A stretch of 58,238 nt of DNA from assembly GCA_035299365.1 (NCBI GenBank), contig DATGWS010000231.1, forward strand, positions 1-58,238, read 5' to 3'. The notes beneath the pieces were generated by a model. That model saw nothing but the letters and a program-made list of their open reading frames with translations, searched no databases and had not been told where the DNA came from. This stretch comes from Candidatus Didemnitutus sp. Its GTDB lineage: Bacteria > Bacteroidota > Ignavibacteria > Kapaibacteriales > Kapaibacteriaceae. The translations under genes were made by a program, and so were the position numbers. Shown one piece after another: positions 7,446 through 52,957 of this stretch; within the stretch, counting starts at the first letter, position 1, and the number at the start of each line of letters is the position of its first letter.

Positions 7446-7563
7446 CGTTCCTCCGGGGATTGGTGAAAAAGGGTGAAAAGGAGAGTGCAAATATATACAA
7501 AACGTATAATTCGGCGAACGTATTGTCGTTTGTGGCGATATGAATTATACATAACTTCGAAAC

Positions 7564-13356: not shown

Positions 13357-13410
13357 AGTACCCCTTCTGATTTCAGGTATCAACAACAACAATGATGATT
13401 CGTTTCCCAC

Positions 13411-16979: not shown

Positions 16980-17016
16980 CAACAACATGCCCACTCACTA
17001 TTTCAGGAATACTCGT

Positions 17017-18972: not shown

Positions 18973-18984
18973 CGGAGTATTACC

Positions 18985-19572: not shown

Positions 19573-19592
19573 TATTCCATCGAAGCCCCCTT

Positions 19593-20039
19593 ATGAAAAC
19601 ACTCATCATCTCCTCAGTCCTGGCATGTGTGGTACTTATCACGTCGTGCTCAGAACCTGAACCACGCAACATTGCCTATGGCAGTGACCAATGTGCTTCA
19701 TGCCGGATGGCCGTTACGGATCAGAAATTCGGTGCTGAGATCGTAACCACCACTGGGAAGATCTATACATTCGATTCACCGGAATGTATGATCGAGTGGA
19801 CTGAAGGGGGCTCCGTGTCTAAGTCTGATATCCATTCGTATTGGGTTACTGACTTCCTCCAACCCGGAAGCCTGATCGAAGCTCGCACGGCATGTTATCT
19901 CGAAAGCGAAATGATTCATTCCCCTATGGGATTGAACGTAGCTGCATTCCGCGATCAGCATGCCTGCGAGCGCGCTCGGGTGAATTTTGTTGGCACTGTA
20001 CGAACATATGATGACGTAGTCCACCTTGTAAACGATTGA
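19593..20039 (+). CDS. nosL: copper-binding lipoprotein NosL
   Basis: Trimmed to ATG 19593 (MKTLIISSVLACVVLITSC, lipobox). 'CASCRMAV' motif, ~150 aa, within the nos cluster. Confidence 0.75.
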   Translation: MKTLIISSVLACVVLITSCSEPEPRNIAYGSDQCASCRMAVTDQKFGAEIVTTTGKIYTFDSPECMIEWTEGGSVSKSDIHSYWVTDFLQPGSLIEARTACYLESEMIHSPMGLNVAAFRDQHACERARVNFVGTVRTYDDVVHLVND

Positions 20040-20079
20040 TCGGTCGGCAACTCTCCAATCAACCTTGAGTCTGTACATC

Positions 20080-20865
20080 ATGAGTTCGTTTCAAATATTC
20101 CTCCTTGCGCTCGTGGCATTGTCTGTTGTAGGCTGCTCGTCTACAACGGACCCTGTACCGCCCCCTACCATCGATAAATTGCTCATCAGCAGTGCAACGG
20201 ATGCCGGATATACGGCAGAGGTCTACGCTACTGTGGCTCTTGCCGAGGGATACAACCCACTCTTTGTGCGTGTACTCCACAATGGTGTTGCTCTTTCAGA
20301 CGCACACGTTACAGTGGTACCAGACATGGACATGGGGACCATGCATCACTCTTGTCCGGTTGTGCAGCCCAACGACAGTATTCCGGACAGCACAGGCCTC
20401 TACAACTGCGCAGTGTTCTTTACCATGCCTAGCGCGACAGATTGGAAGGTAGGCGTAACGATCCACGACCATAGAACTGACACTACCGTTACTGTTCATG
20501 TCCCTGTATCGGTATCTGCAAATGGCAACGTGCGGATCGTTCAGGGTGCAGCTACCACGAAGTACATATTCACGTTGCTCAGTGATGGGTGGAAGGTTGG
20601 AATGAATGACGTGAAGTTCAACGTCTACCGCACAACGGATGGCTATGACCATACACCGGTTGATGATGCATCACTGAAGATGGTCCCAACCATGCCCTCA
20701 ATGGGTCACGGCTCTATGGGTAATGTTCACCCATCCTCAACAGATGGCGGATGGTATACCGGTCGCGCAAACTTCACCATGACCGGTGATTGGCAACTTG
20801 ATCTTACTGTTACCACCATGGATGCTCAGTCCTTTAACGCGAAGTACCAGATTGCTGTTCACTGA
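20080..20865 (+). CDS. lipoprotein with two tandem YtkA/FixH-like domains carrying Met/His-rich motifs (putative periplasmic Cu binding)
   Basis: Trimmed to ATG 20080 (MSSFQIFLLALVALSVVGC). Two ~110-aa repeats each contain a Met/His cluster ('VVPDMDMGTMHHSCP' and 'MVPTMPSMGHGSMGNVHP'). Each ends in a '(F)FTM..(D)W(K/Q)(V/L)' strand. Confidence 0.5.
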   Translation: MSSFQIFLLALVALSVVGCSSTTDPVPPPTIDKLLISSATDAGYTAEVYATVALAEGYNPLFVRVLHNGVALSDAHVTVVPDMDMGTMHHSCPVVQPNDSIPDSTGLYNCAVFFTMPSATDWKVGVTIHDHRTDTTVTVHVPVSVSANGNVRIVQGAATTKYIFTLLSDGWKVGMNDVKFNVYRTTDGYDHTPVDDASLKMVPTMPSMGHGSMGNVHPSSTDGGWYTGRANFTMTGDWQLDLTVTTMDAQSFNAKYQIAVH

Positions 20866-20867
20866 CC

Positions 20868-22874
20868 ATGAACGTCGTTGTTACCATAACTACCCTACTC
20901 CTCTTCTCAGCAACGGTAGCACGTTCTCAAGACACACTGCGCACCATAGTTGTACGGGAGGTGGTGGTTGAGGCAGATCCTCTATTGAAGTCGTGGCGGT
21001 TGAATCGCCCCTTATCATCATCCGGTTCCGTAGATGATCTTATGCGCTTGGGCGGTCTCACACTCATTCAACGCGCTAATGGATTTGCCGGCGAAGCCTC
21101 CATGTTAGGTCTCCGCGGCGGACAGATGAATACATCCATCGATGGTATGAAAATCCATGCTGCATGTGTTGACAAAATGGATCCGTCAACAGCATATGTT
21201 GAGATCGACAACCTTTCAACACTAGATGTATCGTCGGACGCAACGGATCTGAGGTACGGGCAAAATCTTGGTGGCTCGGTGAACTTCACTCTGAAGCAGC
21301 CTGCTCTGAACACGCCAGTTCGTTCGGTGATCGACATCTCGGGTGAGTCCAATGCCTCTATGCGCAGGTTGCGCGCAGATGTGTCCGGAGGAACTCCAGA
21401 CATAGCACTCCGAGCCGGGTACACGCTCCGGTCAGCCGATGACATGCGATCAGGCGATGGTACAACAATCGCATTGTCAGGATTCACTAAACACAATCTT
21501 CAGATAGGGGGCTTGTGGAAGGTTGGAGATCATGATAATGTTTCAGCAGTGCTGATCGCAGATCTAGCAACGGACGTGGGATATCCGGCATTGATCATGG
21601 ATACGCGAAAGGCACAAGCGCTTATTGGTGCTGTTACATGGCGGTCTGTGTGGTCATCGTTCGTTACCACCTCTACAAAGGTGTATGCGAATTCCGTTGA
21701 CCACAGCATGGACGATTATGATCGCCCCCTATCAGAGATTCAGAACCGGGCCTTCATGCCGAATATGTACATGCCGATGGTGGGTACTACCGCCGTCTAC
21801 GGATTGATCGTGGAGAGCGCCTACGCCGCATCGGAAGACATACTAAAGGTTGTTATCGATGGCACCTACCTCGCAGCCACGGCTACGATGAGCATGATGC
21901 CTCTCGATACCACAGTCTCTTCCATGCAATTGACCAACATTGGTGATGCCCGCGTTAGCACGCTCGGTACGAGTATCTCGTGGGAGAGAATGTTGTCGGA
22001 TGATCTCACCGTGCGTGTTGGGACTCGTGTTGATCTTTCCTCGCGAACCATTGAGGATAACCAATTCCGCAGTGTACTTGGTGGATATTTCCCAGGTATG
22101 GAACTCGACCGATTGACTGGTGCACTTTCCGCAAATGTCTCGGCGTATTACACGATAGCCGAGGGACTAAATGTATGGTCGGTCCTCGCTCGTAGTGAAC
22201 GTATGCCCACGCACTTGGAGCTTTACGGATTCTGGCTCTACGATCCTCAGGCAAACATCGTTACCATCGGACGTCCGGATCTGTCCAACGAGCAAGCATG
22301 GTCACTGGATATTGGTACCTCCTACCGTGATGAAGATCTTTCGCTCTCTATCTCCGGATGGATCCGCACAATCAACAACTATATCGCCGCAGTGCCCACT
22401 ATAGACACGTCTACAACTGGTGAGCCCCCTACCCGCACCATGGGCAGTATCGGTACAGCAGATCTTATGGGTTTTGATGCACGTGCAACCGTCCGTGTAC
22501 TACCGTGGTGGAGTATGCAGGCATCGGTACGGGGCATCTGGGGTGTTGGAGTTACGATCGACGATCCGCTTCCTCTAATCGCGCCTGTTCAGGCATCGAT
22601 ACGGGCAGTTGTTGGTGAACGTGTACTGCAAGGTGAATTAGCAGTCTTTGCGTCCACTGCCCAAAACCGCATATCACGCTCGATCCTACCGGAGGATGCC
22701 ACTGCTTCGTGGGCACGGGCAGACGTCTTGATCGCCTGGCGACCGATCGCCGAACTACGGATCCAGGCATCGTGCACAAACGTACTCGATACGTTTTATC
22801 ACGAGCATACCAGTATCAACAACATGCCGTCACGCGGACGCTCATTCAATCTAGGCGTCCGAGCAGAACTATGA
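20868..22874 (+). CDS. TonB-dependent outer-membrane receptor embedded in the nos operon
   Basis: Signal peptide, then plug-type N-terminus ('TIVVREVVVEAD...', 'RGGQMNTSIDGMKIH') and a long beta-barrel. Starts 2 nt after the lipoprotein stop, and its TGA overlaps the nosD ATG. Confidence 0.8.
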   Translation: MNVVVTITTLLLFSATVARSQDTLRTIVVREVVVEADPLLKSWRLNRPLSSSGSVDDLMRLGGLTLIQRANGFAGEASMLGLRGGQMNTSIDGMKIHAACVDKMDPSTAYVEIDNLSTLDVSSDATDLRYGQNLGGSVNFTLKQPALNTPVRSVIDISGESNASMRRLRADVSGGTPDIALRAGYTLRSADDMRSGDGTTIALSGFTKHNLQIGGLWKVGDHDNVSAVLIADLATDVGYPALIMDTRKAQALIGAVTWRSVWSSFVTTSTKVYANSVDHSMDDYDRPLSEIQNRAFMPNMYMPMVGTTAVYGLIVESAYAASEDILKVVIDGTYLAATATMSMMPLDTTVSSMQLTNIGDARVSTLGTSISWERMLSDDLTVRVGTRVDLSSRTIEDNQFRSVLGGYFPGMELDRLTGALSANVSAYYTIAEGLNVWSVLARSERMPTHLELYGFWLYDPQANIVTIGRPDLSNEQAWSLDIGTSYRDEDLSLSISGWIRTINNYIAAVPTIDTSTTGEPPTRTMGSIGTADLMGFDARATVRVLPWWSMQASVRGIWGVGVTIDDPLPLIAPVQASIRAVVGERVLQGELAVFASTAQNRISRSILPEDATASWARADVLIAWRPIAELRIQASCTNVLDTFYHEHTSINNMPSRGRSFNLGVRAEL

Positions 22875-24109
22875 AATACTTCGCAACGATCATCATCTCT
22901 CTCCTTGCCCTCAACGTATCGGCACATACCTTCCGTGCCTATACGTCGGGTGCTACAACGTTGCGTTCGGCAATAGCCATGGCGCATGATGGAGACACGA
23001 TTCTTGTGATGCCTGGCGTTCACAATGGAAGCGACTTTCAGGTTACCACTCGTGTAACGATCATCGGTAAACACGGTGCCGTAGTAGATGCACGGTCAAA
23101 GGGTGGCTCGATCTTCATTGTAAACGCAGATGGTGTAGCCTTTCGATCCCTCACCATCCGCAACGTGGCCATGAGCTACGTAGATGACAACGCGGCCATC
23201 AAGGTGATGAAAAGATCCGGCTTCGACATTGATGGCTGTAGAATTGAGAATGGGTTCTTTGCGATCTACCTCAGTAACTCTGCCAATTGCCGTATCGCAA
23301 ACAACACCATCATCGGCACCATGCGCGACGAGTCGGCCTCCGGCAATGGCATCCATGCATGGACATGTAGGAACATCCTCGTTACAGGCAATACCATCAT
23401 TGGCCACCGCGATGGCATCTACTTCGAATTCATGCGTCGTGGCACTGTCCTTAACAATCACAGCGAACGCAATGCTCGTTATGGACTTCACTTCATGTTC
23501 TCGGATTCATGTTCCTACCATAACAACATCTTCGGTGCGAATGGTGCAGGTGTAGCCGTGATGTACACCAAGAACATTGAAATGGTCGGTAACACATTTC
23601 GCGACAATTGGGGCCCAACGTCGTACGGACTTCTCCTCAAGGATATCACGGACGGTCACCTCAATGGCAATCACTTTGAACGGAACAGTATAGCCATTCA
23701 CGGAGAGGGGGCTAGCCGTCTCCTCATCGAGAACAATACCTTCCTCCGCAATGGATACGGCTTCCGCATTCTTGGCGGTTGTGAAGACAACACCGTTGTT
23801 CACAACACCTTTGATGGTAACACCTTTGACGTAACAACAAACACGCGCGAATCAAACAACCACTTCCAAGGCAACTACTGGAGCGCATACGAGGGATATG
23901 ATCTCAATCGCGATGGAATTGGTGATGTGCCATATCATCCTGTGCGTTTGTATTCGTTGTTGGTAGAACAACTTCCTTCCTCCGTGATCCTTATGCACAC
24001 GGCCTTCATCACTATGCTGGATCTTGCCGAGCGAATCGTACCAACAGTAACGCCGGAGACGCTGGTTGATGCAAAGCCCCTTATGCGACCTTTCACACAA
24101 CGACCATGA
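22871..24109 (+). CDS. nosD: NosD periplasmic beta-helix copper-maturation protein
   Basis: Trimmed to ATG 22871 (MKYFATIIISLLALNVSAHT). Repeated parallel beta-helix turns ('NNTIIGTMRD', 'GNTIIGHRDGIYF', 'NNIFGANGAGVAVMY', 'GNHFERNSIAIH'). ATGA overlap with nosF. Confidence 0.85.
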   Translation: MKYFATIIISLLALNVSAHTFRAYTSGATTLRSAIAMAHDGDTILVMPGVHNGSDFQVTTRVTIIGKHGAVVDARSKGGSIFIVNADGVAFRSLTIRNVAMSYVDDNAAIKVMKRSGFDIDGCRIENGFFAIYLSNSANCRIANNTIIGTMRDESASGNGIHAWTCRNILVTGNTIIGHRDGIYFEFMRRGTVLNNHSERNARYGLHFMFSDSCSYHNNIFGANGAGVAVMYTKNIEMVGNTFRDNWGPTSYGLLLKDITDGHLNGNHFERNSIAIHGEGASRLLIENNTFLRNGYGFRILGGCEDNTVVHNTFDGNTFDVTTNTRESNNHFQGNYWSAYEGYDLNRDGIGDVPYHPVRLYSLLVEQLPSSVILMHTAFITMLDLAERIVPTVTPETLVDAKPLMRPFTQRP

Positions 24110-24828
24110 TCAGCATTAACCACCTTCAGAAGTCCTTTCGATCGCTGCGAGTGATCAAGGATCTCACTACAACCCTTCCGTCCGGCAGTGTAACAGCCGT
24201 CATTGGTCCAAATGGCAGCGGAAAAACGACACTCATGAAGAGCATCGTTGGTCTCGTTCAGCCAGACTCGGGATCGATCCTCGTTGACGGCACAACTACG
24301 ATCAACAACCCGTCAAGCCGAATGCACATCGGGTATATGTCCCAAGTGGCACGGTATCCGGAGAACCTCACACCAACGGATCTGATCCAAATGGTAGGGG
24401 GCGTGCGGGCCGGACTCACCACTGACATCGCAGATGAGCTCATTACAGACATGCAACTCGAAGACCACATGAAGAAGCCGATGCGTGCTTTGAGTGGTGG
24501 TACCCGTCAGAAGGTGGGTGCCGTGATAGCCTTCATGTTCCGTCCCACAACGTTGCTGCTCGACGAACCAACAGCCGGGCTCGATCCCGTTGTCACGGAG
24601 CGGTTGAAAGAACGCATCTCAGCACTTCGTGATGGCGGAACCACGATTCTCATCACCTCTCACGTGTTGTCGGAAATCCAGGAACTGGCAGACCGCATCA
24701 TCTACCTGCATGAAGGTCTTGTGATGTTCGACGGTGCAGTACAAGAGCTTCTCACACAGACCGGACATACATCTCTATCGAAGTCTGTGGCATCTATCAT
24801 GTCGAGAGAATTGGGCGGTGTACAATGA
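24106..24828 (+). CDS. nosF: NosF ABC-transporter ATPase
   Basis: Walker A 'GPNGSGKTT', signature 'LSGGTRQK', Walker B 'LLLDEPTAGLD'. Lies between nosD and nosY. Confidence 0.85.
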   Translation: MISINHLQKSFRSLRVIKDLTTTLPSGSVTAVIGPNGSGKTTLMKSIVGLVQPDSGSILVDGTTTINNPSSRMHIGYMSQVARYPENLTPTDLIQMVGGVRAGLTTDIADELITDMQLEDHMKKPMRALSGGTRQKVGAVIAFMFRPTTLLLDEPTAGLDPVVTERLKERISALRDGGTTILITSHVLSEIQELADRIIYLHEGLVMFDGAVQELLTQTGHTSLSKSVASIMSRELGGVQ

Positions 24829-25607
24829 GAACCACCTCACTCCTCCTGAAATACGTCGTACGCGACGTGATGCGTAGCAAATGGCTTGGACTGTACCTCA
24901 TCTTCTTTGCAGCAGTGACAGAGGGTCTTCTTTTCTTCACAGCCGGTGAAGCCAAGACCGTTGTCGGACTAATGAACGTAGTCCTTCTTCTCATCCCCTT
25001 GGCTGCCGCAGTGTTCGGTACACTCCACGTTCATCACAACCGAGACTTCGTAGAGCTTATGCTCACGCAGCCCGTATCTCGTAACGCCATCTACGTTGCT
25101 CTCTACCTCGGCGTTAGCCTACCGTTCCTCATTGCTTTTGTTGTTGGTATTGGTGTACCTGCTGCCGTGCATGGTGTATTGCTTACAGCACCCATCCTTA
25201 CTTTGCTAGCAACCGGTTGTGCACTGACCATGGTCTTCTTTGCGATCGCCTACCTCATCGGTGTGATCGTCCAAGACAAGGCAGCCGCCATGGGTGTTGC
25301 GTTCATCTCCTGGCTTTCGTTCGCCGTCTTGTATGATGGCGTGATCCTTGTTCTTACGGTACTGTTCGCCGACTACCCGCTCGAAAAGGCCACCATTGCG
25401 ATGGTCGTCTGCAATCCCATCGATCTGGCCCGCATCATCGTTATGCTCACGTTCGATTATGCCGCGCTCATGGGCTATACGGGGGCTGTGTTCCAAGAGT
25501 TCTTCGGCACAGCAACCGGTGTTGTTATCTCTTCCTGTTCACTCATTGTCTGGACGCTTCTTCCGGTCTTCATTGGCCGTAGAGCATTCGGGCGTAAAGA
25601 CTGGTGA
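24825..25607 (+). CDS. nosY: NosY ABC-2 type permease
   Basis: 260 aa with ~6 TM segments. ATGA overlap with nosF. Confidence 0.8.
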   Translation: MRTTSLLLKYVVRDVMRSKWLGLYLIFFAAVTEGLLFFTAGEAKTVVGLMNVVLLLIPLAAAVFGTLHVHHNRDFVELMLTQPVSRNAIYVALYLGVSLPFLIAFVVGIGVPAAVHGVLLTAPILTLLATGCALTMVFFAIAYLIGVIVQDKAAAMGVAFISWLSFAVLYDGVILVLTVLFADYPLEKATIAMVVCNPIDLARIIVMLTFDYAALMGYTGAVFQEFFGTATGVVISSCSLIVWTLLPVFIGRRAFGRKDW

Positions 25608-42419: not shown

Positions 42420-43334
42420 ATGGCACGCCTCGATGTAGAGACTTATCATATCCCCGTCATGCTCCGAGAGTGCATTTCCCACCTGACAATGGTGCCACAC
42501 GGTGTGTATGTAGACGGCACGCTGGGTGGTGGCGGACACACAGCAGCCATGTTGTCTGTTGCTACTGAGGACTCTCGTATCTATGCCTTTGACGCAGACG
42601 AAAAGGCCATCGAGCATTGTCAGTCGCGGTTTGCAGAGGAATTGTCAAGGGGCGATGCATCGCGCCTGGTACTGGTCCATGCAAACTTCGACACCATGGC
42701 AGAGGTCCTCAAAGAGCGGGTGATTTCTCGTGGCCAGGCGGTGAATGGCATCTTGCTGGACCTAGGCGTCTCTTCGTTTCAGTTTGACCATCACCACCGT
42801 GGTTTTAGTTTCCGCTACATGGCACCGCTCGATATGCGTTTTATGCCGGAAGGCGAGACAGCAGCTGATATCCTCAATACGCGCACGGAGCCGGAGCTGG
42901 CGCAAATCTTCCGCGATTTTGGAGATGAGCCTCAAGCATGGCGTTTAGCCAAGGCCATCGGACAGAGACGCCAGCTAGCTCGGTTTGCCACTACCGCAGA
43001 TCTGCGAGACCTTGTTATCCAGCAGATTCCTCCTCAACACCAGCCCAAAACAATGGCGCGGTTGTTCCAAGCTCTACGCATCGCCGTTAACCGTGAACTT
43101 GACCGTCTTGAGTCAACACTGCTTTCGATGATTCCGATTCTCGCTCCCCACGGAAGAATCGTAGTGATGAGCTATCACAGTGGTGAGGACCGTGTTGTGA
43201 AGAACGTCTTCCGTAGTCATAGTGAGACTCTCACAACGATCACCAAGAAGGCAATTGAGGCTTCCCCTGAGGAAGTGTACGAGAATCCGCGGGCCAGAAG
43301 CGCACGACTGCGCGTTGCGGAGCGTAGACCGTAA
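42420..43334 (+). CDS. rsmH: 16S rRNA (cytosine1402-N4)-methyltransferase RsmH/MraW
   Basis: 'HIPVMLREC', 'DGTLGGGGH', 'LDLGVSSFQFD', 'SYHSGEDRVVK'. Confidence 0.9.
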   Translation: MARLDVETYHIPVMLRECISHLTMVPHGVYVDGTLGGGGHTAAMLSVATEDSRIYAFDADEKAIEHCQSRFAEELSRGDASRLVLVHANFDTMAEVLKERVISRGQAVNGILLDLGVSSFQFDHHHRGFSFRYMAPLDMRFMPEGETAADILNTRTEPELAQIFRDFGDEPQAWRLAKAIGQRRQLARFATTADLRDLVIQQIPPQHQPKTMARLFQALRIAVNRELDRLESTLLSMIPILAPHGRIVVMSYHSGEDRVVKNVFRSHSETLTTITKKAIEASPEEVYENPRARSARLRVAERRP

Positions 43335-44767: not shown

Positions 44768-45898
44768 ATGCTGTATCAATTGGCGTTATGGATTCGCTCC
44801 ATGATGGACGTACCAGGGATTAACCTCTTCGGCTACGTTACCTTCCGTGCAGCGGCAGCTGCCATCTTTGCCCTCCTCATTGCCATCCTCCTTGGTCCAA
44901 GCATCATCGCTGCACTCAAACGCAGGCAGATCGGTGAGCAGGCCAAATCGGAATTGCAACAAGTTGGTGGACATTCTCTTAAGGCCGGAACGCCAACGAT
45001 GGGCGGACTCATCGTACTTGCTGCCGTGCTAATCCCAACGCTCCTCTGGGCCAACATCATGAACATGTATGTTGTGATGGCAGTGTTCACAACCGCTGCG
45101 TTGGGAGCCGTGGGTTTTCTTGATGACTATCTCAAGGTGATCAAGAAATATCCTAAGGGGCTTATTGGACGATACAAGATCGTTGGTCAGGTTGTGGTTG
45201 GCTTCATTGTTGGTGGTTCCATCTACTTCTTTCCGGAGTGGTATTCCACCGAGCTTGTTCCATGGAAGACACTCACCACGGTCCCATTTCAGAAGATGTC
45301 GAACTTTGATTTCGGCATCCTCTACATCCCTCTTGTGATTTTCATCATCACGGCAACGTCCAACGCCGTGAACCTCACGGACGGGCTCGATGGTCTGTGC
45401 ATCGGCACTGTTGGTGTAAGCGCTCTCACACTTGCTGTTATAGCCTATTTCAGCGGCAACGCTTTTTTTGCGGACTATCTCAACATCATGCACCTTGGTG
45501 GCACCGATGAGCTGGCCATCTTCTGTGCAGCAATCGTTGGCGCTGCCATGGGGTTCTTGTGGTATAACGCCTATCCCGCCCAGGTCTTTATGGGAGACAC
45601 CGGCTCACTCGCACTTGGCGGAGCCATTGGTGTGCTTTGTGTCCTCATAAAGAAGGAGTTCCTCCTACCCATCGTAGGGGGCGTCTTCTTTGCCGAGACC
45701 ATGTCTGTTATCCTCCAAGTACTCTGGTTCAAGTACACCAAGAAGCGCTATGGAGAAGGTAGACGCATTTTCCGCATGGCCCCCTTCCATCATCACTTTG
45801 AAAAGAGCGGCTGGCACGAATCCAAGATCGTCACACGATTCTATATCGTGGCCATCATGCTTGCCATCATTACGATGGCCACATTCAAGGTCCGGTGA
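44768..45898 (+). CDS. mraY: phospho-N-acetylmuramoyl-pentapeptide transferase MraY
   Basis: Trimmed to ATG 44768. 'GTPTMGG', 'NAVNLTDGLDGL', 'MGDTGSLALGG', 'APFHHHFE'. Confidence 0.9.
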   Translation: MLYQLALWIRSMMDVPGINLFGYVTFRAAAAAIFALLIAILLGPSIIAALKRRQIGEQAKSELQQVGGHSLKAGTPTMGGLIVLAAVLIPTLLWANIMNMYVVMAVFTTAALGAVGFLDDYLKVIKKYPKGLIGRYKIVGQVVVGFIVGGSIYFFPEWYSTELVPWKTLTTVPFQKMSNFDFGILYIPLVIFIITATSNAVNLTDGLDGLCIGTVGVSALTLAVIAYFSGNAFFADYLNIMHLGGTDELAIFCAAIVGAAMGFLWYNAYPAQVFMGDTGSLALGGAIGVLCVLIKKEFLLPIVGGVFFAETMSVILQVLWFKYTKKRYGEGRRIFRMAPFHHHFEKSGWHESKIVTRFYIVAIMLAIITMATFKVR

Positions 45899-46629
45899 TT
45901 CCTTTCTTTGTCCATGGTGCATTTGAGTATCTGGCATATGCCACGGCATATTGGGTCTACCTGCGTCAGCGTAAACTCATAGCCGACCCTTATACCGCAA
46001 ATGAGCGAACATCCCTGTTTCTCGCAGCTGCAATTGGTGGCGTCATTGGAGCCCATGCTTTGGGTATCTGCGAAGTACTCAATCAAGTGCCGTCGATGTC
46101 GATCTTTGAGATCTCACAGCAGAAGACGATAGTGGGTGGAATTCTCGGGGCAACACTCGCAACAGAAATTGCGAAGTACATTCGCAAAAGAGATCAAAGT
46201 ACTGGTGACCTTTTAGTAGTTCCGATAGCGGTTGCCATTATCATTGGTCGGATTGGATGTCATCTTGTTGCACTCCATGATGGTACATACGGCTCTCCGA
46301 CAGACGGTGTGTTTGGCTATGACCACGGAGACGGCATCCTTCGACATCCAACGAGTCTGATAGAGATGTTTTGCGTTTCAATCGTCGTTCTAGTCCTTTC
46401 CTTAACGAAGCGTCATATCCGACCTGGGGATATGTACCGGTATTTTATGGCATCCTATATGGGCATTCGGCTGGGTCTCGATGCTTTGAAGCCATCAGCT
46501 GTTTCCTTCTCGTATGGTACTGCGCACATATCAGTACTCCAGATAGCTGAGTTGATCGGGGCGCTGTATTTTCTTTTTGGAACCGGCATCGTGGCATCTA
46601 TCTTGAGCAATAGAGCACAAAGGAGTTAG
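45895..46629 (+). CDS. divergent Lgt-like (prolipoprotein diacylglyceryl transferase family) membrane protein
   Basis: GTG overlaps the mraY stop (GTGA). About 7 TM segments. 'IIGRIGCHLV' resembles Lgt 'GR(I/L)GN', and 'LRHPTSLIEMF' resembles Lgt 'HPxxLYE'. Confidence 0.5.
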   Translation: MIPFFVHGAFEYLAYATAYWVYLRQRKLIADPYTANERTSLFLAAAIGGVIGAHALGICEVLNQVPSMSIFEISQQKTIVGGILGATLATEIAKYIRKRDQSTGDLLVVPIAVAIIIGRIGCHLVALHDGTYGSPTDGVFGYDHGDGILRHPTSLIEMFCVSIVVLVLSLTKRHIRPGDMYRYFMASYMGIRLGLDALKPSAVSFSYGTAHISVLQIAELIGALYFLFGTGIVASILSNRAQRS

Positions 46630-46630
46630 T

Positions 46631-46903
46631 ATGCCAGACAATCATAGGGAGGACGAATTTCCTGATTGGATCATCATAGTTAACCTCGTTACGGGGTTGT
46701 TGTGGGTATTTATATCGGTGAAGTTCTTTAGCTACGGCGGCTTAATTCTTGCTGCTGCCACCCCTGTAGCACTTGCTGTTGAGAACGTTGCATTGATATT
46801 CTTCATACGGTCTCGGATTGCTCGACGAAAGGTACTCGTACTTGCACTATCGTATTTCCTTGTTTGGGGCACGTGCAGCATTGGCCTTGTAATGGCAAGT
46901 TGA
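46631..46903 (+). CDS. small (90-aa) three-TM membrane protein, no recognised family
   Basis: Starts 1 nt after the Lgt-like stop. Hydrophobic segments 'WIIIVNLVTGLLWVFISV', 'GGLILAAATPVALAV' and 'VLVLALSYFLVWGTCSIGLV'. Confidence 0.45.
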   Translation: MPDNHREDEFPDWIIIVNLVTGLLWVFISVKFFSYGGLILAAATPVALAVENVALIFFIRSRIARRKVLVLALSYFLVWGTCSIGLVMAS

Positions 46904-46925
46904 TGTCCATTAATCGCACTTTGAA

Positions 46926-48335
46926 ATGAACAGACCATATACCTACTACGATTTCACGCAAAGCATTTGCAACGTCTGTCTGAGGCGCTTGGACGCAAAG
47001 ATTGTATTTGAAGGTTCGAATGTTGTCATGCTGAAGGAATGCCGCGAGCATGGACACCAGCGCAACATCCTTGCCTCAGATATTGAGTACTATAAGCGCT
47101 GCCGAGAATTCATCAAACCCGGAGAGATTCCTCAGCGTTTCGGTACAAAGACGGAGTATGGCTGTCCGTACGATTGCGGTCTGTGTACTGATCATGAGCA
47201 GCATTCTTGCTTAACCTTGATCGAAGTCACAGATCGGTGTAATCTGACGTGCCCAACATGTTACGCCTCGAGCAGTCCACATTCCGGTCGACATCGAACT
47301 CTCGATGAGATTCGTCGCATGCTGGACGTCATCGTTGAGAGTGAGGGTAATCCGGATGTGGTACAGCTGAGCGGTGGCGAGCCAACGATCCACCCTGAGT
47401 TCTTCGCTATTGTTGATGAAGCAAAGCTCAGACCGATCAGGCACCTTATGGTCAATACGAATGGTGTTCGTATTGCCAATGATCGCGACTTCGTGGCTCG
47501 ACTAGCAACGTATCAACCTGGTTTTGAAGTTTACCTGCAGTTTGATTCCTTTCGCGGTTCAGTCCATGAGCGTCTGCGGGGTAAGGATCTGACGGAAGTC
47601 CGTGCTAAAGCACTTGAGCATTTGAATGAGTTCAACGTATCGACTACCCTGGTGGCAACCCTTGAGCGGGGTGTTAATGACGATGAGATCGGTTCGATCA
47701 TAGACTTTGCCCTGAAGCAACCATGTGTTCGTGGAGTAACATTTCAGCCGACCCAACAGGCAGGGCGCTTAGACTCATTCGATCGCCACGCTGGCGGACT
47801 CACTCTAACGGACGTTCGTAGAATGGTCATCGAACAGACATCTCTGTTCACGCAGGAGGATCTGGTTCCGGTTCCCTGCAATCCGGATGCTCTCTGTATG
47901 GCATATGCCTTGAAGTACCAGAACAGTGTTTATCCGCTTACCCGCCTTTTTTCACCACAAGATCTATTGGACGGAACGCGGAACACCATTGTATTTGAGG
48001 AAGAACAAACCATTCGTGAGCGTGCTTTTCGACTGTTCTCCACCGGTACACCTTCGGAATGTGCGTCTGAAGCACTAGAAGATCTGCTATGTTGTCTTCC
48101 ACGTATCGATGCGCCGTCACTTGAGTATAGCAACCTCTTTCGCATCATCATCATGCAGTTTTTAGACCCAACCATATTTGATGTCCGATCAGTTAAGAGA
48201 TCATGCGTCCACATCGTTCACCCAGACGGTAGAATCATTCCGTTTGACACAATGAATCTGTTTTATCGCGACGGACTTGAGGGTCACACGAAACAACTTC
48301 AAATGGAACGTGCAAGATCATGGCCACAGAATTAG
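46926..48335 (+). CDS. multi-cluster radical SAM enzyme with N-terminal Cys/His (rubredoxin-like) module
   Basis: CX3CX2C 'CNLTCPTCY' plus 'LSGGEPT'. Upstream Cys-rich 'CPYDCGLCTDHEQHSC'. N-terminal 'CNVC...ECREHGH'. Further conserved-looking Cys lie near the C-terminus. Confidence 0.8.
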   Translation: MNRPYTYYDFTQSICNVCLRRLDAKIVFEGSNVVMLKECREHGHQRNILASDIEYYKRCREFIKPGEIPQRFGTKTEYGCPYDCGLCTDHEQHSCLTLIEVTDRCNLTCPTCYASSSPHSGRHRTLDEIRRMLDVIVESEGNPDVVQLSGGEPTIHPEFFAIVDEAKLRPIRHLMVNTNGVRIANDRDFVARLATYQPGFEVYLQFDSFRGSVHERLRGKDLTEVRAKALEHLNEFNVSTTLVATLERGVNDDEIGSIIDFALKQPCVRGVTFQPTQQAGRLDSFDRHAGGLTLTDVRRMVIEQTSLFTQEDLVPVPCNPDALCMAYALKYQNSVYPLTRLFSPQDLLDGTRNTIVFEEEQTIRERAFRLFSTGTPSECASEALEDLLCCLPRIDAPSLEYSNLFRIIIMQFLDPTIFDVRSVKRSCVHIVHPDGRIIPFDTMNLFYRDGLEGHTKQLQMERARSWPQN

Positions 48336-49651
48336 ACCCAGATGATAAGGTCTGGGTGGTGTCTGCCGATATGGGCTACGGACACATGCGTGCGGCATTT
48401 CCGTTTCGTGGGGTTGCTGATGGCGGCGTAATAGCTGCCGGTGATAATGAGCTTGCAGCTGAATCTGAGCGGAAGTTGTGGCGACGCTATCTTCGACTGT
48501 ATGAAGTGTTTTCTCGCGCTAAGGGTGTTCCGTTAGTTGGGAAGCAGCTATTTGGAGTCCTCGATTCGCTACTTCATATCCCATCGCTCTACCCTATTCG
48601 CAACCTATCGCATACCACGTATCAGGTGGAGATGCTCGATAAACAACTAAAAAGGGGGCTTGGGGCCGGTATTGCGCGAATCATTGAAGGAAAACGTCAG
48701 CCCCTTCTCACCTCATTCTATGTGCCGGCTCTTGTTGCAGATAAGGCCGGACACGAACCGATCTATTGCATCATCTGCGACGCTGATCTGAACAGAGTCT
48801 GGGTTGCAAAGGATCCGTGGGAGTCCTCGATCAACTATTTCGTCCCGTGCGGAAAGGCCGCCCAGCGGTTGAAGTCGTATGGAGTGTCAGAGGACCGAAT
48901 ATTCTTAACAGGATTCCCGCTCGATGACTCGTTACTAGGCGGACGAGAGCTCTCAACGCTCAAGAGTGATCTTTCCATCCGACTCAAGGTGTTGGATCCC
49001 AATCGTCGGTTTCACACGCTCCACGGAAAGAACGCCGAACATTTCCTTGGTCCCGACGGATCCCATCCCGTACCCACAGATCGGGTCTTGACCATAACCT
49101 ATGCCGTAGGCGGTGCCGGTGCACTAAAAGAGATCGGCGCCTCCCTACTACGTACGTTCAAGGAGAGATTGCAGGCCGGAACAATGCAGCTGAACCTGGT
49201 TGCTGGCACACGTGACGAGGTTCGAGGCTGGTTTGAACAACAAAAGCAAGAGATCGTTGGTCGGGACGCTCGTGTAAAGGTGATCTACGGTCAAACTCTT
49301 GACGAATATTTTACGGCCTTCAATTTGGCTATTCGTTCCACGGATGTGCTCTGGACAAAACCGAGCGAACTCTCTTTTTATGCTGGACTTGGCCTTCCCG
49401 TTATCATGACGCCGACCATTGGGTCGCAAGAGAAATTCAATCGGAAATGGTTGCTGGAGATCGGCTCCGGAATGCGCCAGGAAAATCCGGACTACGCCAA
49501 TGAGTGGCTCTTTGACCTACTCGACAAGGGCAGGCTGGCAGACATGGCTTGGCTTGGTTTTCTTAGAGCGCGGAAGCTAGGATACTATCATATTCTTGAT
49601 GTACTACGTACAAGGTCGTTTCTCAAGTCGGACAACCCATTACATCGGTGA
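48320..49651 (+). CDS. GT28 / MGDG-synthase (UgtP)-like glycosyltransferase
   Basis: 16-nt overlap with the radical SAM gene. 'VVSADMGYGHMRAA', 'IFLTGFPLD', 'YAVGGAGA', 'VLWTKPSELSFYAGLGLPVIMTPTIGSQEKFN'. Confidence 0.6.
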   Translation: MATELDPDDKVWVVSADMGYGHMRAAFPFRGVADGGVIAAGDNELAAESERKLWRRYLRLYEVFSRAKGVPLVGKQLFGVLDSLLHIPSLYPIRNLSHTTYQVEMLDKQLKRGLGAGIARIIEGKRQPLLTSFYVPALVADKAGHEPIYCIICDADLNRVWVAKDPWESSINYFVPCGKAAQRLKSYGVSEDRIFLTGFPLDDSLLGGRELSTLKSDLSIRLKVLDPNRRFHTLHGKNAEHFLGPDGSHPVPTDRVLTITYAVGGAGALKEIGASLLRTFKERLQAGTMQLNLVAGTRDEVRGWFEQQKQEIVGRDARVKVIYGQTLDEYFTAFNLAIRSTDVLWTKPSELSFYAGLGLPVIMTPTIGSQEKFNRKWLLEIGSGMRQENPDYANEWLFDLLDKGRLADMAWLGFLRARKLGYYHILDVLRTRSFLKSDNPLHR

Positions 49652-49723: not shown

Positions 49724-52700
49724 ATGTTCAGACATCTACTCCTGACAATTTCAGTGCTCGTTGTAGCACTTGGCTTCGCTTTTGTACCCTCAATTCAAGC
49801 CCAACAGAAGGCATTTCGAAATTTCGACATTGAAGTAAAAGGTCAGCCCGCCCCCGGGTATTACATCATCGGCGAGGTATCAACAGATTCCTTTGCCGTG
49901 ATGGATCATGCCGGCAAATACATGTATAAGGCGGGGATCGGAGATCATGCCAACATCCAAACCTATGGTGGGAAGTGGATCACGTACTTCATCACCAACA
50001 ACGGGAAACAAGCCTTTGTTCGGCTCGATAAGAACATGAACGTGATTGATACCATGAGATCGTCCGCTGACTACGACACGGACTTCCATGAAGCACGTAT
50101 CATTACCGACACCTCGTATTACATCTTGGGTCAAGAGATACTCCAAATTGACATGTCACAAGTAGTGTCAGGGGGCAGACCAGACGCCTACGTCATTGCG
50201 AATGTGATCGAAGAACGTTCGTTCAGCGGCAATACGCTCTTCTCCTGGAGATCCATTGAACACATCCCGGTAACCGATGCGGCACCGAGTATTGACCTGA
50301 CGGCTGCCGGCATCGATTACATGCACGTGAACTCGATCACCATGGCTCGTGATGGAAACATCATCATCTCAGCACGGCATCTCAGCGAAGTGATCAAGAT
50401 CAATCGTCAGACCGGCGCCATCATGTGGAGACTTGGCGGATCAGATTCCAAGAACAATCAGTTTCAATTCCTCAATGATACAACGGATGGATACTTCGGT
50501 TTCTCCAGTCAACACAGTGCATTTGAAACAGCCGATGGAACCATCCTCTTGTTCGACAATGGCAACACAAAGCCAACAGTCCGTTCGCGTGCAGTTGAGT
50601 ATGCGATAGACCTCAATGCAATGACGGCAAGAAAGGTCTTTGAATTCTCGCCCGACCCTCCTGCCTACGCATCGAGTATGGGAAGCGTCCAAGAACTCGA
50701 GAATGGGAATATCCTCATAGGATATGGCTCGGGATCAAATCGAACAGTTGCACAAGAGGTTACGCGGGATGGTGCAATCCAGATCCAGATAACGAATAAT
50801 GCCACGATTGGATTTGCCGCCTATCGGGTGATCAAGAGCGAATTGTTCATGACGGGCGTTTTTAAGCGATTCTCTACCTCTGGTACAATTCCTTTTTCTA
50901 AAGGTGATAGTTCCACGCACGTTACTGCAACCATCACCCGTGTAGATGAGGCAACCTCTGCTGTCGTTGAGAGACATTCGTATTCTCCTCATGCAATTGA
51001 TTTTGCCTCAGATGCTGGTTGTGGTGTGATCCCAGCCCGCTGGGTTGTGAGGTTCAAAAAACCAGCGAAGGTTGACGGGAGTCTAGACTTCGAACTCGAT
51101 GAAATTCCTTCCATTGAATTCCCGGAAAAGATCAAGCTCTTCCGTAGGGCCATTGAGGGCAGTGGTGATTTTACACTTGTGAATGCAACGTACTCGGCAT
51201 CAACCGGACGCCTCACTGTGTCCGGCATCACCAACGGCGAGTACATGCTCGCCTATCCGGAGTGTTTTGCTCCAACGCTCACAAGCCCCCTGCATGCTAG
51301 TGTTGAAGTAGATACGTTGCCAAAATTTACGTGGACAACTGCCGTTGGTGGTGGTGAGTATCAGGCAGAGTTTAGCACAGACGAGGGTTTTGTCAATGTT
51401 CCCACGCGGTTCACAACGCGGAGACTCGACACAACACTTACGATCAAGGCAAGGGGCACAACATTCTTTTGGAGAGTGCGTGCAAAGACAACGAGCGGTT
51501 ACGGACCTTGGTCCACGATCAGCAGATTCACAACCAAACTGCCTGCTCCTCAGATCATTAGTCCGAAGATCGACAAGGACACGGTTGCTGTATTGCGCTC
51601 TGCTGAATTCTCGTGGATACAATCACCAGGGGCTGATGGGTATCGCGTTCGCATTGAAAGAACTGATGTATCTGAGACCATCATCGATACGATAGTCATT
51701 GGTCAGAAGTTTGTACCAGGTAGCCGTCTTCTTCCAAACACGAAGTATTCCTGGATCGTTACGTCGATCAAAGGAAATGTAACGAGCGCATCAAGTGTTC
51801 GAGAGACCTTCATCACTGCACTACCAGCACCACAGCTTCAGAAGCCTGCTGCTGAAGCAACGAATGTTGCTACCGTTAATGTAACGTTCCAATGGACGCC
51901 TGTGCCGTCGGCGCTGAAATACATCCTTACGATCGTTAATGCTACAGATGGCACAACGGTCATTCGAGACTCCGTCATTCAAGGGTCACTTGTTGTAGCC
52001 ACCTTGCCGGCCGCTTCACGATTTGAGTGGACCTGTTATGCTATGGGTCGGTACGGTCGCGGTGAACACGCAACCCCAATGTTCTTCACAACTGCTGCCT
52101 CTTTGAATCTTTCTCAACCATTCCTGCTTGGTCCAAAGTCCACAGGCAATGTTGACACATCGAATGTCCTCTTTACATGGTCACCTGTTGCCAATGCCCA
52201 GGTGTATGACCTCCAGGTCAGTTCATCTGGCTCGTTCACTACACCGGATACGTCGTTGATTGGTCTCACAGATACACGTTGGACGGCACCACGACTGAAG
52301 TCCGGTAGCGTATATGAATGGCGTGTGATCGCTCGTGCAGAAAATGCAATCAGCCCATGGTCACGTACGGCAACGTTCACCACAGCAGCAGCAAGCAGTG
52401 GTGGTGGGCTCACACCTCTTGTCCCTCTCGCCGGTAGCGTTAATGTGCCGGTTTCCGGCGTCTTTATGTACACAACGTCCGAGAACTACACTTCATATAC
52501 GGTTCTTGTTGATACGATCGGCACATTCGATGGTCCATTACTCTCGATCTCGTCTGACAATGGAACGGCAGCATACTCCGGCTTGGCAGCGTCAACACAA
52601 TACTTCTGGAAGGTTGTAGGACGCACGAAGTCCGGTAGTGATGAAGAAGGTCCTAGCGCTCGATTCGAAACGGTTGGTATCACCAGTGGTCTTGCAGAGA

Positions 52701-52957
52701 CATCAGAGCTGTTGAGTACAGTGACGCTTGTTGGCAATAGAATCTTCATTCGTGATGGGGAAGAATTGCCAGACGTTCAGTCAGTGAACATCTACAACGT
52801 TCAAGGTCGACTTCTCCAGTCCATTCATTGGCCTACCGGCTCTGATAATGCGCACATTGAGACTCAACTCAACCCCGGAGTCTACATCGTTCATGTGCAT
52901 GGTACGGACGCTTCAGATCCGGTTAAGGCGTATACCGTATTCCAACCGTACCGATGA
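49724..52957 (+). CDS. secreted arylsulfotransferase (ASST)-like beta-propeller protein with five FN3-like repeats and a T9SS CTD
   Basis: Signal peptide. 'DFHEARII', 'IDYMHVNSITMARDGNIIISARHLSEVIKINRQTGAIMWRLGG', 'SSQHSAFETADGTILLFDNGN'. Five ~90-97-aa repeats (about nt 51270-52680) each carry 'F.W...(G/A)..Y' and 'Y.W.V' and end in 'F(T/E)T' or 'FIT'. C-terminus 'VNIYNVQGRLLQSI...PGVYIVHVHG'. Confidence 0.65.
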   Translation: MFRHLLLTISVLVVALGFAFVPSIQAQQKAFRNFDIEVKGQPAPGYYIIGEVSTDSFAVMDHAGKYMYKAGIGDHANIQTYGGKWITYFITNNGKQAFVRLDKNMNVIDTMRSSADYDTDFHEARIITDTSYYILGQEILQIDMSQVVSGGRPDAYVIANVIEERSFSGNTLFSWRSIEHIPVTDAAPSIDLTAAGIDYMHVNSITMARDGNIIISARHLSEVIKINRQTGAIMWRLGGSDSKNNQFQFLNDTTDGYFGFSSQHSAFETADGTILLFDNGNTKPTVRSRAVEYAIDLNAMTARKVFEFSPDPPAYASSMGSVQELENGNILIGYGSGSNRTVAQEVTRDGAIQIQITNNATIGFAAYRVIKSELFMTGVFKRFSTSGTIPFSKGDSSTHVTATITRVDEATSAVVERHSYSPHAIDFASDAGCGVIPARWVVRFKKPAKVDGSLDFELDEIPSIEFPEKIKLFRRAIEGSGDFTLVNATYSASTGRLTVSGITNGEYMLAYPECFAPTLTSPLHASVEVDTLPKFTWTTAVGGGEYQAEFSTDEGFVNVPTRFTTRRLDTTLTIKARGTTFFWRVRAKTTSGYGPWSTISRFTTKLPAPQIISPKIDKDTVAVLRSAEFSWIQSPGADGYRVRIERTDVSETIIDTIVIGQKFVPGSRLLPNTKYSWIVTSIKGNVTSASSVRETFITALPAPQLQKPAAEATNVATVNVTFQWTPVPSALKYILTIVNATDGTTVIRDSVIQGSLVVATLPAASRFEWTCYAMGRYGRGEHATPMFFTTAASLNLSQPFLLGPKSTGNVDTSNVLFTWSPVANAQVYDLQVSSSGSFTTPDTSLIGLTDTRWTAPRLKSGSVYEWRVIARAENAISPWSRTATFTTAAASSGGGLTPLVPLAGSVNVPVSGVFMYTTSENYTSYTVLVDTIGTFDGPLLSISSDNGTAAYSGLAASTQYFWKVVGRTKSGSDEEGPSARFETVGITSGLAETSELLSTVTLVGNRIFIRDGEELPDVQSVNIYNVQGRLLQSIHWPTGSDNAHIETQLNPGVYIVHVHGTDASDPVKAYTVFQPYR

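Follow-up and report, generated by a model that had tools for sequence, protein, structure and literature searches.

Radical S-adenosylmethionine (SAM) enzymes of the Tes type, known since 2022, form C–C bonds at the unactivated ends of lipid tails. In GDGT-MAS/Tes (MJ0619; structures 7TOL and 7TOM; NCBIfam model NF045702), a rubredoxin-like site, a Cys3-His cluster (CPYDCGLCxxH), and a CX3CX2C radical SAM core are combined with a C-terminal domain whose cluster bears a labile methionine, Met439, and forms a C–S intermediate; the enzyme binds archaetidylglycerol, a phosphatidylglycerol-type lipid, and acts on the termini of its tails (PMC9433317). Hundreds of bacterial Tes homologs have been noted and a role in the synthesis of brGDGTs, the branched form of glycerol dialkyl glycerol tetraethers, suggested for them, with none tested and no Lgt partner mentioned in the accessible portions of the papers concerned (PMC8941075, PMC11868695, PMC13459092). 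One such homolog is encoded on contig DATGWS010000231.1 of assembly GCA_035299365.1, a stretch of 58,238 nucleotides referred to here in its full length as the window, where it lies beside a paralog of the prolipoprotein diacylglyceryl transferase Lgt and a gene for a very small membrane protein. This trio of genes is the subject of the present analysis.

Lgt takes its donor from the phosphatidylglycerol head-group class, the same class of lipid that GDGT-MAS acts on, and meets its substrates at the outer face of the membrane. The C terminus of the Escherichia coli enzyme is cytoplasmic. Another radical SAM enzyme that invites comparison is Mss of Thermotoga, which belongs to a different family from Tes. 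Mss likewise joins the tails of bacterial lipids, a likeness to the trio that is conceptual; in contrast to what is proposed below, the accessible part of the Mss literature describes a free-lipid product and mentions neither an Lgt-like protein nor mini-proteins as partners (Sahonero-Canavesi et al. 2022, PMC13159169).

The recurring unit consists of an Lgt-like gene, a gene for a Tes-like radical SAM enzyme, and one to three genes for mini-proteins. Neither Pfam nor NCBIfam nor the searchable literature, which did not extend to the paper on TrsS (Haft and Tolstoy 2025), yielded a description of this trio, and a preliminary description of the locus knew of no characterized system with the four-gene set that it proposed. 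Searches also found no literature pairing a tetraether synthase with a prolipoprotein diacylglyceryl transferase, or a radical SAM protein with a lipobox and Lgt, and Lgt-like or mini-protein partners of Tes are not described in those parts of the Tes literature that were covered. In the window, the trio has the following features.

45895–46629, forward strand: Lgt paralog of 244 amino acids (aa), first gene of the module (Pfam LGT)
46631–46903, forward strand: three-helix mini membrane protein of 90 aa, second gene of the module and proposed lipidation substrate
46808–46879, forward strand: lipobox-like element of the 90-aa mini-protein, with the Cys82 codon at 46874–46876
46926–48335, forward strand: GDGT-MAS/Tes-like radical SAM enzyme of 469 aa, third gene of the module (Pfam Zn_ribbon_HMPTM and Radical_SAM)

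Conservation of the Trio and Natural Fusions

A genome scan with the radical SAM family, using one genome per species, returned at least 593 relatives, the best 80 of which were analyzed. All 80 come from Bacteroidota (Chitinophagaceae, Sphingobacteriaceae, Flavobacteriaceae, Hymenobacter, Saprospiraceae, and Fluviicola) and encode radical SAM proteins 60–66% identical to the one in the window. An Lgt-like gene lies immediately upstream of the radical SAM gene in 76 of the 80 loci, and the stop codon of the one usually overlaps the start codon of the other. When all proteins of at least 80 aa around the radical SAM gene were clustered de novo, the radical SAM family itself (80/80) and the Lgt-like family (76/80) stood alone, the next commonest family occurring in at most 15 loci. 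The reverse search gives the same picture: among 49 metagenome loci fetched through an Lgt-like motif and having at least 1.5 kb of downstream sequence, a Tes-like radical SAM gene follows the Lgt-like gene in 45.

The window packs these genes closely, with a single nt lying between the Lgt-like stop codon (TAG) and the start codon (ATG) of the 90-aa open reading frame (ORF), and with 22 nt between that ORF and the radical SAM gene. For these three genes the packing goes beyond chance, since the Lgt-like/radical SAM pair recurs throughout the Bacteroidota and metagenome loci. The preliminary description had taken the module to be tied to the peptidoglycan gene mraY and to include a glycosyltransferase of the DUF6938 family as a fourth member. 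This tie does not hold outside the lineage of the window: neither mraY nor the DUF6938 gene occurs within 6 kb of the trio in any of the 80 Bacteroidota loci.

The trio also reaches well beyond Bacteroidota. It was found in a Pacearchaeota genome (L086) and on a Parcubacteria contig (L088), and a cyanobacterial contig (L087) carries the Lgt-like/radical SAM pair, after which the contig ends. A profile search of 1.84 billion cluster representatives returned 440 Lgt-like clusters at E ≤ 1e-30.

In some cases the two enzymes are a single polypeptide. Protein P0348 (733 aa), which represents one of these 440 clusters, matches Pfam LGT, Zn_ribbon_HMPTM, and Radical_SAM, and fusions of this kind were found on three contigs with distinct sequences, the two parts being joined by a linker of about 35 residues. 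The linker and the distinctness of the three contigs led to rejection of a sequencing artifact as the source of the fusion. At one fusion locus (L174), a 61-aa ORF ending in ...LLLGFGLCLTLAR comes after the fusion gene.

Further features are confined to single lineages. The Parcubacteria locus (L088, 5001–7627) comprises the Lgt-like gene, a 138-aa protein with the Cys motif, and a 368-aa radical SAM ORF that matches the TrsS and Tes models from about model position 82 only and is without the zinc-ribbon N terminus; a 377-nt uncalled gap before this ORF could be either a frameshift or the sign of a truly shortened enzyme. In one Chitinophagaceae-like lineage (L004 and L005, 154–12562), a MarR regulator and a resistance-nodulation-division (RND) efflux system (OEP, MFP, ACR_tran) lie upstream of the trio, and a transporter with an MMPL/sterol-sensing domain lies downstream. 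These lineage-specific flanks may point to a lipid-export context.

The Radical SAM Enzyme

The resemblance of the radical SAM protein to tetraether synthases, put forward in the preliminary description, is borne out by models, sequence, and predicted fold. Its best curated NCBIfam match is the radical SAM (seleno)protein TrsS (NF045646), aligned end to end over model positions 3–436 of 441 with the C-terminal domain included; the score, 321.8 bits against a cut-off of 490, is nevertheless below equivalog level, as is that for Tes (NF045702; 282.9 bits against 450). The ORF has no in-frame UGA, so the protein contains no selenocysteine. In the Protein Data Bank (PDB), GDGT-MAS (7TOL) is matched along the entire protein, with E 7e-68 when the single sequence is the query and 4e-80 when a family profile is used. 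An AlphaFold2 model built from a 12-sequence alignment, with an overall predicted local distance difference test (pLDDT) score of 57.6 that drops under 50 in the C-terminal domain, was matched by Foldseek to 7TOM over the full length (E 6e-30, template modeling [TM] score 0.70, about 30% identity), the next-best fold being MoaA at TM 0.37. The other assignment that had been considered, a SPASM-type peptide maturase or a cofactor enzyme, finds no footing: models of those families reach about 58 bits at most (55 for the maturases) and cover the radical SAM core only, and there is no Pfam match to a SPASM domain.

All of the Cys motifs read by the preliminary description are present, namely C15xxC18...C39xxH42xH44 at the N terminus, the second cluster C80PYDC84GLC87TDH90EQH93SC95, and C105NLTC109PTC112. 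They correspond to what is found in GDGT-MAS, which bears out the suggestion of a rubredoxin-like iron site and an additional cluster: C15, C18, C39, and H42 form the CX2CX20CX2H rubredoxin-like site; C80, C84, C87, and H90 the N-terminal Cys3-His [4Fe-4S] motif; and C105, C109, and C112 the CX3CX2C radical SAM motif. The Cys residues of these motifs are invariant in an alignment of 52 diverse members of the clade, which are 54–75% identical to the window protein. Four additional residues, C318, C389, C390, and C427, are likewise invariant across these 52 members. The protein has no membrane or export signal.

Differences from GDGT-MAS gather in the C-terminal domain. Of the Cys ligands of its C-terminal cluster, C427 alone is retained in the clade; the others have been replaced, and the labile Met has become variable. 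The clade also differs in its distribution and company, being found in bacteria, DPANN archaea, and the Candidate Phyla Radiation (CPR) beside an Lgt paralog and mini-proteins with a Cys motif. Judged by its sequence, the radical SAM protein is a genuine Tes-type enzyme with a rewired catalytic cluster site, an equivalog of neither Tes nor TrsS.

The Lgt Paralog

The 244-aa protein had been described as Lgt-like, and membership of the Lgt family stands, while the idea of an ordinary Lgt does not. Pfam LGT (PF01790) matches residues 7–233 with 59.8 bits against a gathering threshold of 24.9. By comparison, the Lgt equivalog model TIGR00544 scores far below its cut-off (37.1 against 118.9 bits), and the other Lgt equivalog models give 16–36 bits against cut-offs of 334–558. 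Homology to E. coli Lgt (5AZB) emerges from a family profile, with an hhalign probability of 98.5% (E 2e-15, 230 columns); such a profile is required, as a single-sequence phmmer search of the PDB returned nothing relevant.

Residues invariant in the family are H7, R119, C122, R150-H151-P152, Y188, R192, and K199. On the alignment, R143, R239, Y235, E243, and H196 of E. coli Lgt fall on R119, R192, Y188, D/E196, and H151, all of them invariant or almost invariant among the 25–33 family members compared, and the RH196PxxLYE motif of Lgt is conserved. H103 is lost, its place being taken by V, I, or M, and the alignment is ambiguous around G154 and E151. The paralog is about 45 residues shorter than E. 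coli Lgt and has a reduced periplasmic head region. It retains the arginines with which Lgt binds the phosphate of phosphatidylglycerol, with the rest of the active site altered. Two further differences from Lgt lie in its company: the paralog seems to be dedicated to the one to three co-encoded mini-proteins, and it is genetically coupled, sometimes physically fused, to a radical SAM enzyme.

The Mini-Proteins and Their Cysteine Motif

The 90-aa product was correctly recognized at the outset as a three-helix membrane protein; its membership in a family whose one invariant residue is a Cys in lipobox-like surroundings went unnoticed. Of all the components of the locus, this one tells the most about function. 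The family is not visible to ordinary searches. A blastp comparison of the 90-aa protein with the loci of relatives gave no match, and no Pfam or NCBIfam model matches the mini-proteins. A hidden Markov model (HMM) of small proteins adjacent to the radical SAM gene was needed, against which the 90-aa protein scores E 7e-7, the best of 200 shuffled sequences reaching 0.03.

In nearly all of the Bacteroidota loci, one or two very hydrophobic ORFs (52–110 aa) stand directly behind the radical SAM gene, and 103 of 108 such adjacent small ORFs fall into one similarity cluster. Their sole invariant residue is a Cys, present in 106 of 106 proteins. Around it, G or S is found at position −4 in 97, G, S, or A at −2 in 92, and G, S, or A at +1 in 85 of the 106; L or F is found at −3, and a hydrophobic helix of about 14 residues separates the Cys from a K/R-rich patch at −24 to −17. 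Of 101 adjacent small ORFs, 71 have a strict form of this motif, compared with 9 of 430 hydrophobic small ORFs elsewhere in these loci (Fisher p 2e-53). The genes beside the Lgt paralog encode proteins with the order of basic patch, hydrophobic helix, and Cys that is seen in lipoprotein signal peptides, and the marks of their own motif are a G at both −4 and −2 together with bulkiness at −1. In the Bacteroidota form, 3–22 residues follow the Cys (median 7). The window protein has a basic patch at R60–K67, a hydrophobic helix at V68–W79, and then G80-T81-C82-S83, with seven residues after the Cys.

The position of the small genes varies. They come after the radical SAM gene in the Bacteroidota loci, and the 90-aa gene of the window precedes it. 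Elsewhere the mini-proteins have the same kind of C-terminal end, reading ...IIYGACWATVGSW in the Pacearchaeota genome, ...GVIGFGICLLAFNNF in the Parcubacteria contig, and ...LLLGFGLCLTLAR at the fusion locus. In other metagenome loci, one to three small genes sit between the Lgt-like and radical SAM genes, and here the motif is N-terminal, like a lipoprotein signal peptide (e.g., MPEPLRKRSLVIAPARLSAIAGGVMLLGLGLCGAG...); a loop follows the Cys and then a second helix ending in K/R. What is conserved is the element itself, and its place in the protein chain is permuted. For both forms, the positive-inside rule predicts that the Cys lies at the outer membrane face of the helix it follows, outside the cytoplasm.

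Two Lgt-like proteins, P0372 (463 aa) and P0409 (467 aa), carry the element themselves. At their C termini a basic patch and a helix lead into ...SWGCVGW, and behind this comes a domain of about 200 aa that Pfam does not match. These may be fusions of enzyme and substrate, with a larger extracytoplasmic domain as the cargo.

A Proposed Mechanism

The explanation favored here places the trio as a unit in its locus and divides the work between its members. The Lgt paralog would transfer a diacylglyceryl-type group from a phosphatidylglycerol-type lipid to the invariant Cys of the mini-protein, giving an S-diacylglyceryl-type thioether. Enzyme and substrate would form a dedicated pair, apart from housekeeping lipoprotein maturation, and this is the simplest reading given that the residues binding the phosphate of phosphatidylglycerol are kept and that the co-encoded proteins present a Cys in the geometry of a signal peptide. 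The Tes-like radical SAM enzyme would dock on the cytoplasmic face of the Lgt paralog. A cytoplasmic site of action is suggested by its lack of a membrane or export signal and by its natural fusion to the C terminus of the Lgt-like protein.

By analogy with GDGT-MAS, the radical SAM enzyme most likely modifies hydrocarbon tails, those of the donor lipid before transfer or those of the protein-bound lipid after it. It would apply 5'-deoxyadenosyl radical chemistry to unactivated tail ends, as in the C–C bond formation carried out by Tes. The product would be a mini-proteolipid with a macrocyclic, dimerized, or membrane-spanning lipid anchor. The invariant Cys in its lipobox-like context shifts the likely product away from the free glycolipid first envisaged for the locus and toward a lipid-modified mini-protein. 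Gene content, the conservation of the trio across phyla, the motif, the homologies, and the natural fusion are observations. The role of the Cys as acceptor, the identity of the lipid, the chemistry of the radical SAM enzyme, and the order of the steps are what we infer from the sequences, and we give this explanation, taken as a whole, an even chance of being right.

Several observations weigh against it. In the radical SAM clade, the equivalents of C438, C455, and C470 of GDGT-MAS are I409, S/T426, and D/E441, and Met410, which corresponds to the labile Met439, is kept in only 36 of the 52 members; the model of the C-terminal domain is too poor for judging the geometry of a cluster there. 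In the Lgt paralog, Y26 of E. coli Lgt is replaced by the invariant His7 and N146 by the invariant Cys122 (motif GRIGC). Both residues, like G154, are reportedly absolutely required in E. coli Lgt, and because of the two replacements the paralog may catalyze a different transfer. In the mini-proteins, the −1 position is mostly I, V, T, or A and not the G, A, or S of a canonical lipobox. Topology imposes a constraint as well, since a cytoplasmic enzyme cannot reach a thioether formed on an outer-face Cys and is therefore restricted to the ends of the tails or to the lipid donor. It is also not obvious that one tail chemistry would serve all hosts, which span Bacteroidota with iso-branched lipids and lipid-scavenging members of DPANN and CPR.

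A more specific version of the explanation would have the tails of the S-lipidated mini-protein C–C coupled to each other or to a phospholipid of the inner leaflet, producing a macrocyclic or bilayer-spanning tether. Such a modification would be new, and in this particular form we think it unlikely.

Alternative Explanations

The alternative that survives best is a pathway to a free lipid. The Tes-like enzyme and the Lgt paralog would together make a free membrane-spanning or macrocyclic glycerolipid, for example iso-diabolic-acid lipids from iso-C15 tails, as a bacterial counterpart of GDGTs or macrocyclic archaeol. The Lgt-like protein would then serve as a membrane dock and lipid presenter, or as a transferase to a nonprotein acceptor, and the mini-proteins would be structural or regulatory subunits. 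Full-length homology to GDGT-MAS speaks for such a pathway, as does the natural fusion, which places the radical SAM enzyme on the Lgt-like protein. Two points about lipids favor it as well: bacterial Tes homologs have been hypothesized to make membrane-spanning lipids, and Bacteroidota are rich in iso-branched acyl chains, the ends of which resemble phytanyl ends (PMC8941075). What this pathway leaves unexplained is the invariant Cys, found at the position where Lgt substrates present theirs in the N- and C-terminal versions alike, and the fusion of Lgt-like proteins to a motif-bearing segment in P0372 and P0409. Membrane-spanning lipids are also not known from those cultured Flavobacteriia, Sphingobacteriia, and Chitinophagia that carry the module. 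We regard a free-lipid pathway as unlikely.

The short tails of the Bacteroidota mini-proteins bring a second possibility, that of a lipopeptide pathway resembling those of RiPPs (peptides made on the ribosome and modified after translation). The mini-protein would be a precursor, modified by the radical SAM enzyme near the Cys or in the short tail and lipidated on the Cys by the Lgt paralog; cleavage of the type carried out by signal peptidase II would free the Cys with 3–13 residues as a signal or envelope component. The 3–22 residues past the Cys (median 7) suit this possibility, and so do the frequent one to three tandem paralogous small genes, as in RiPP precursors, and the lineage-conserved tails such as ...NFH and ...GF. 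Against it, the radical SAM enzyme has neither a SPASM nor a RiPP-recognition domain, and its sole close relatives are of the lipid-binding Tes/TrsS type. The enzyme is cytoplasmic, with the Cys and tail predicted to be outside. Lineages with the N-terminal motif have a loop and a full transmembrane helix after the Cys rather than a short peptide, and the mostly bulky residue at −1 (I or V) is unfavorable for signal peptidase II. A lipopeptide pathway is accordingly judged improbable. The two alternatives that start from the gene neighborhood of the window are taken up with that neighborhood.

The mraY–DUF6938 Pair and the Variable Slot

The trio is embedded in a truncated division and cell wall (dcw)-type operon, the other genes of which are as follows.

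42420–43334, forward strand: rsmH (16S rRNA m4C1402 methyltransferase), opening gene of the operon, assigned as an ORF with Pfam Methyltransf_5 at the orthologous position in L002, L090, and L092
43341–44765, forward strand: murF-type Mur ligase (Pfam Mur_ligase, Mur_ligase_M, Mur_ligase_C)
44768–45898, forward strand: mraY (TIGR00445, 364 bits against a cut-off of 192), upstream neighbor outside the conserved module
48320–49651, forward strand: DUF6938 GT-B glycosyltransferase-like protein of 443 aa (Pfam DUF6938), downstream neighbor outside the module

The cluster is reduced to rsmH–murF–mraY, there being no ftsL, ftsI, or murE between rsmH and murF. The preliminary description had pointed out that murD, ftsW, and murG do not follow mraY, and none of these genes, nor murC, occurs anywhere in the 58-kb window. 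The TGA of mraY and the GTG of the Lgt-like gene share 4 nt (GGTCCGGTGATT), and the radical SAM and glycosyltransferase genes overlap by 16 nt; on a direct reading of the sequence, the four ORFs, their coordinates, and all four junctions (4-nt overlap, 1 nt, 22 nt, 16-nt overlap) are as first described. Apart from the GTG at 45895, the ORF has no start codon upstream of His7, a residue invariant in the family; the overlap with mraY is therefore real and does not depend on how the ORF is called. The overlapping codons make cotranscription of the trio with mraY likely in this genome. A scan of the window for promoters and terminators gave counts not above those of shuffled sequence and is therefore uninformative on operon structure, and an Rfam scan of the window found no RNA families.

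The glycosyltransferase had been likened to MGDG synthases and UgtP, which its fold and profile matches uphold. Pfam finds DUF6938 only (46.6 bits against 27), with no match to MGDG_synth, Glyco_transf_28, or Glyco_tran_28_C, and the NCBIfam UgtP models score 17–30 bits against cut-offs of about 500. The AlphaFold2 model (pLDDT 84.9) has a GT-B fold of two Rossmann domains. Its best Foldseek match is MGD1 of Arabidopsis (4X1T, E 5e-8), with MurG (3s2u, TM 0.48/0.62) and WaaG also among the matches, the TM scores for matches of the MGD1/UgtP/MurG type being only 0.44–0.62. The best sequence-profile match is to the processive diacylglycerol glucosyltransferase UgtP (9WDE, E 1.5e-5). The protein thus shares the GT-B fold of GT28 enzymes without an MGDG_synth or Glyco_tran_28 domain, and, in contrast to GT28 glycolipid synthases, its conserved partner in Kapabacteria is mraY. 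Since murG is normally found in this operon and the fold matches MurG and MGD1, the DUF6938 protein may act as a lipid-linked glycosyltransferase in association with mraY.

Comparison with relatives shows how the region is put together. In the closest relative (L090, 6862–9323), the order is rsmH–murF–mraY–DUF6938 with 9 nt between mraY and the glycosyltransferase gene and no trio. Another relative (L091, 6225–9323) has an NmrA-like gene (7360–8004, 214 aa) between the two and no Lgt-like gene there. In L092 (6857–12103) and L093, the order is mraY, NmrA-like remnant, Lgt-like gene, radical SAM gene, a gene for a 94-aa protein, and DUF6938. The remnant, a 103-aa ORF (L092, 7992–8303), corresponds to the Rossmann portion at the N terminus of the 214-aa NmrA-like protein and looks like a scar from insertion of the trio. 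A further Kapabacteria metagenome-assembled genome (L002) has mraY–PhyH–Lgt-like, with the radical SAM gene and two small genes inverted. Its PhyH gene (9136–9924) belongs to the phytanoyl-CoA dioxygenase family, which acts on branched lipid chains. The slot between mraY and DUF6938 is thus empty or holds an NmrA-like gene, PhyH, or the trio, which makes mraY–DUF6938 the conserved pair and the trio an accessory occupant. The region of the window is a composite of an rsmH–murF–mraY–DUF6938 operon of the Kapabacteria/Ignavibacteriota type and the trio in its variable slot. Nothing links the trio to peptidoglycan synthesis in general.

This bears directly on the third alternative, the four-gene cassette of the preliminary description, in which the trio and the glycosyltransferase would make a glycolipid that is C–C modified or spans the membrane, or some different lipid-linked component of the envelope, with translational coupling to mraY providing a functional link to lipid I synthesis. 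The tight or overlapping junctions from mraY through the glycosyltransferase gene had suggested it, and the expected co-occurrence beside mraY was in part found: the order mraY, trio, DUF6938 is repeated in L092 and L093. The kinship of the glycosyltransferase with the diacylglycerol glycosyltransferases MGD1 and UgtP fits a glycolipid product, and in an Ignavibacteria locus (L089, 8001–10519) DUF6938 adjoins an MGDG_synth/GT28 gene. The synteny of other relatives runs the other way. The mraY and DUF6938 genes are adjacent without the trio in L090 and separated by an unrelated gene in L091, the radical SAM gene is on the opposite strand in L002, and DUF6938 is 57–90% identical across Ignavibacteriota whether the trio is present or absent. 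Together with the absence of both flanking genes from the 80 Bacteroidota loci, the arrangements in L090, L091, and L089 led to rejection of DUF6938 as a member of the module, and the trio takes the place of the four-gene cassette, for which only a slim chance is left.

The last alternative, that the 244-aa protein is the housekeeping Lgt, the small ORFs incidental, and the radical SAM neighbor meaningless, can draw on the above-threshold Pfam LGT match and on the absence of a second lgt from the 58-kb window (the window alone having been searched), but it is very improbable given the score of 37 bits against 118.9 for TIGR00544, the invariant Y26→His and N146→Cys replacements, the absence of the Lgt-like gene from the same locus in L090 and L091, which is unexpected for an essential housekeeping gene of fixed position, and a pairing that holds across phyla and extends to fusion with the radical SAM enzyme.

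Implications

The trio appears to combine lipoprotein-type Cys lipidation with Tes-type radical lipid chemistry, and there is a real chance that its product is a new protein–lipid modification. Its fixed gene context suggests a concrete hypothesis for what this clade of Tes homologs does, and its carriers are tractable, with aerobes of the genera Pedobacter, Chitinophaga, Mucilaginibacter, and Flavobacterium among them. If the proposal is true, Gram-negative bacteria would have a second, substrate-dedicated Lgt system, found also in archaea and CPR, that joins lipoprotein biogenesis to radical chemistry on lipid tails. On the more specific version with C–C-coupled tails, the modification would occur widely in Bacteroidota and extend to DPANN archaea and CPR bacteria, and many of the bacterial Tes homologs surveyed as possible brGDGT producers would do something other than make free tetraethers. 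Counts of Tes homologs used in tracing the sources of paleoclimate lipid biomarkers may include this clade, the product of which may not be a free tetraether.

Other Features of the Window

In several Kapabacteria-like genomes, a protein of about 1070 aa with an ASST (arylsulfotransferase)-like beta-propeller and fn3 repeats is encoded near DUF6938 (window 49724–52957; L002 269–3469; L090 13692–16889). Farther away, at 16915–25607, the window holds a nitrous-oxide reductase cluster made up of nosZ with nos_propeller, followed by genes for NosD, an ABC ATPase, and an ABC-2 permease, and enclosing a YtkA-like protein and a TonB-dependent receptor. The window otherwise encodes TonB-dependent receptors, along with a protein bearing a C-terminal sorting domain of the type IX secretion system (T9SS) at 10852–13410. 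The close relatives of the window genes are all from Kapabacteria or Ignavibacteria, although the Didemnitutus label of the assembly denotes Verrucomicrobiota. These relationships and the T9SS sorting domain suggest that the assembly bin is probably mislabeled or the contig misbinned.

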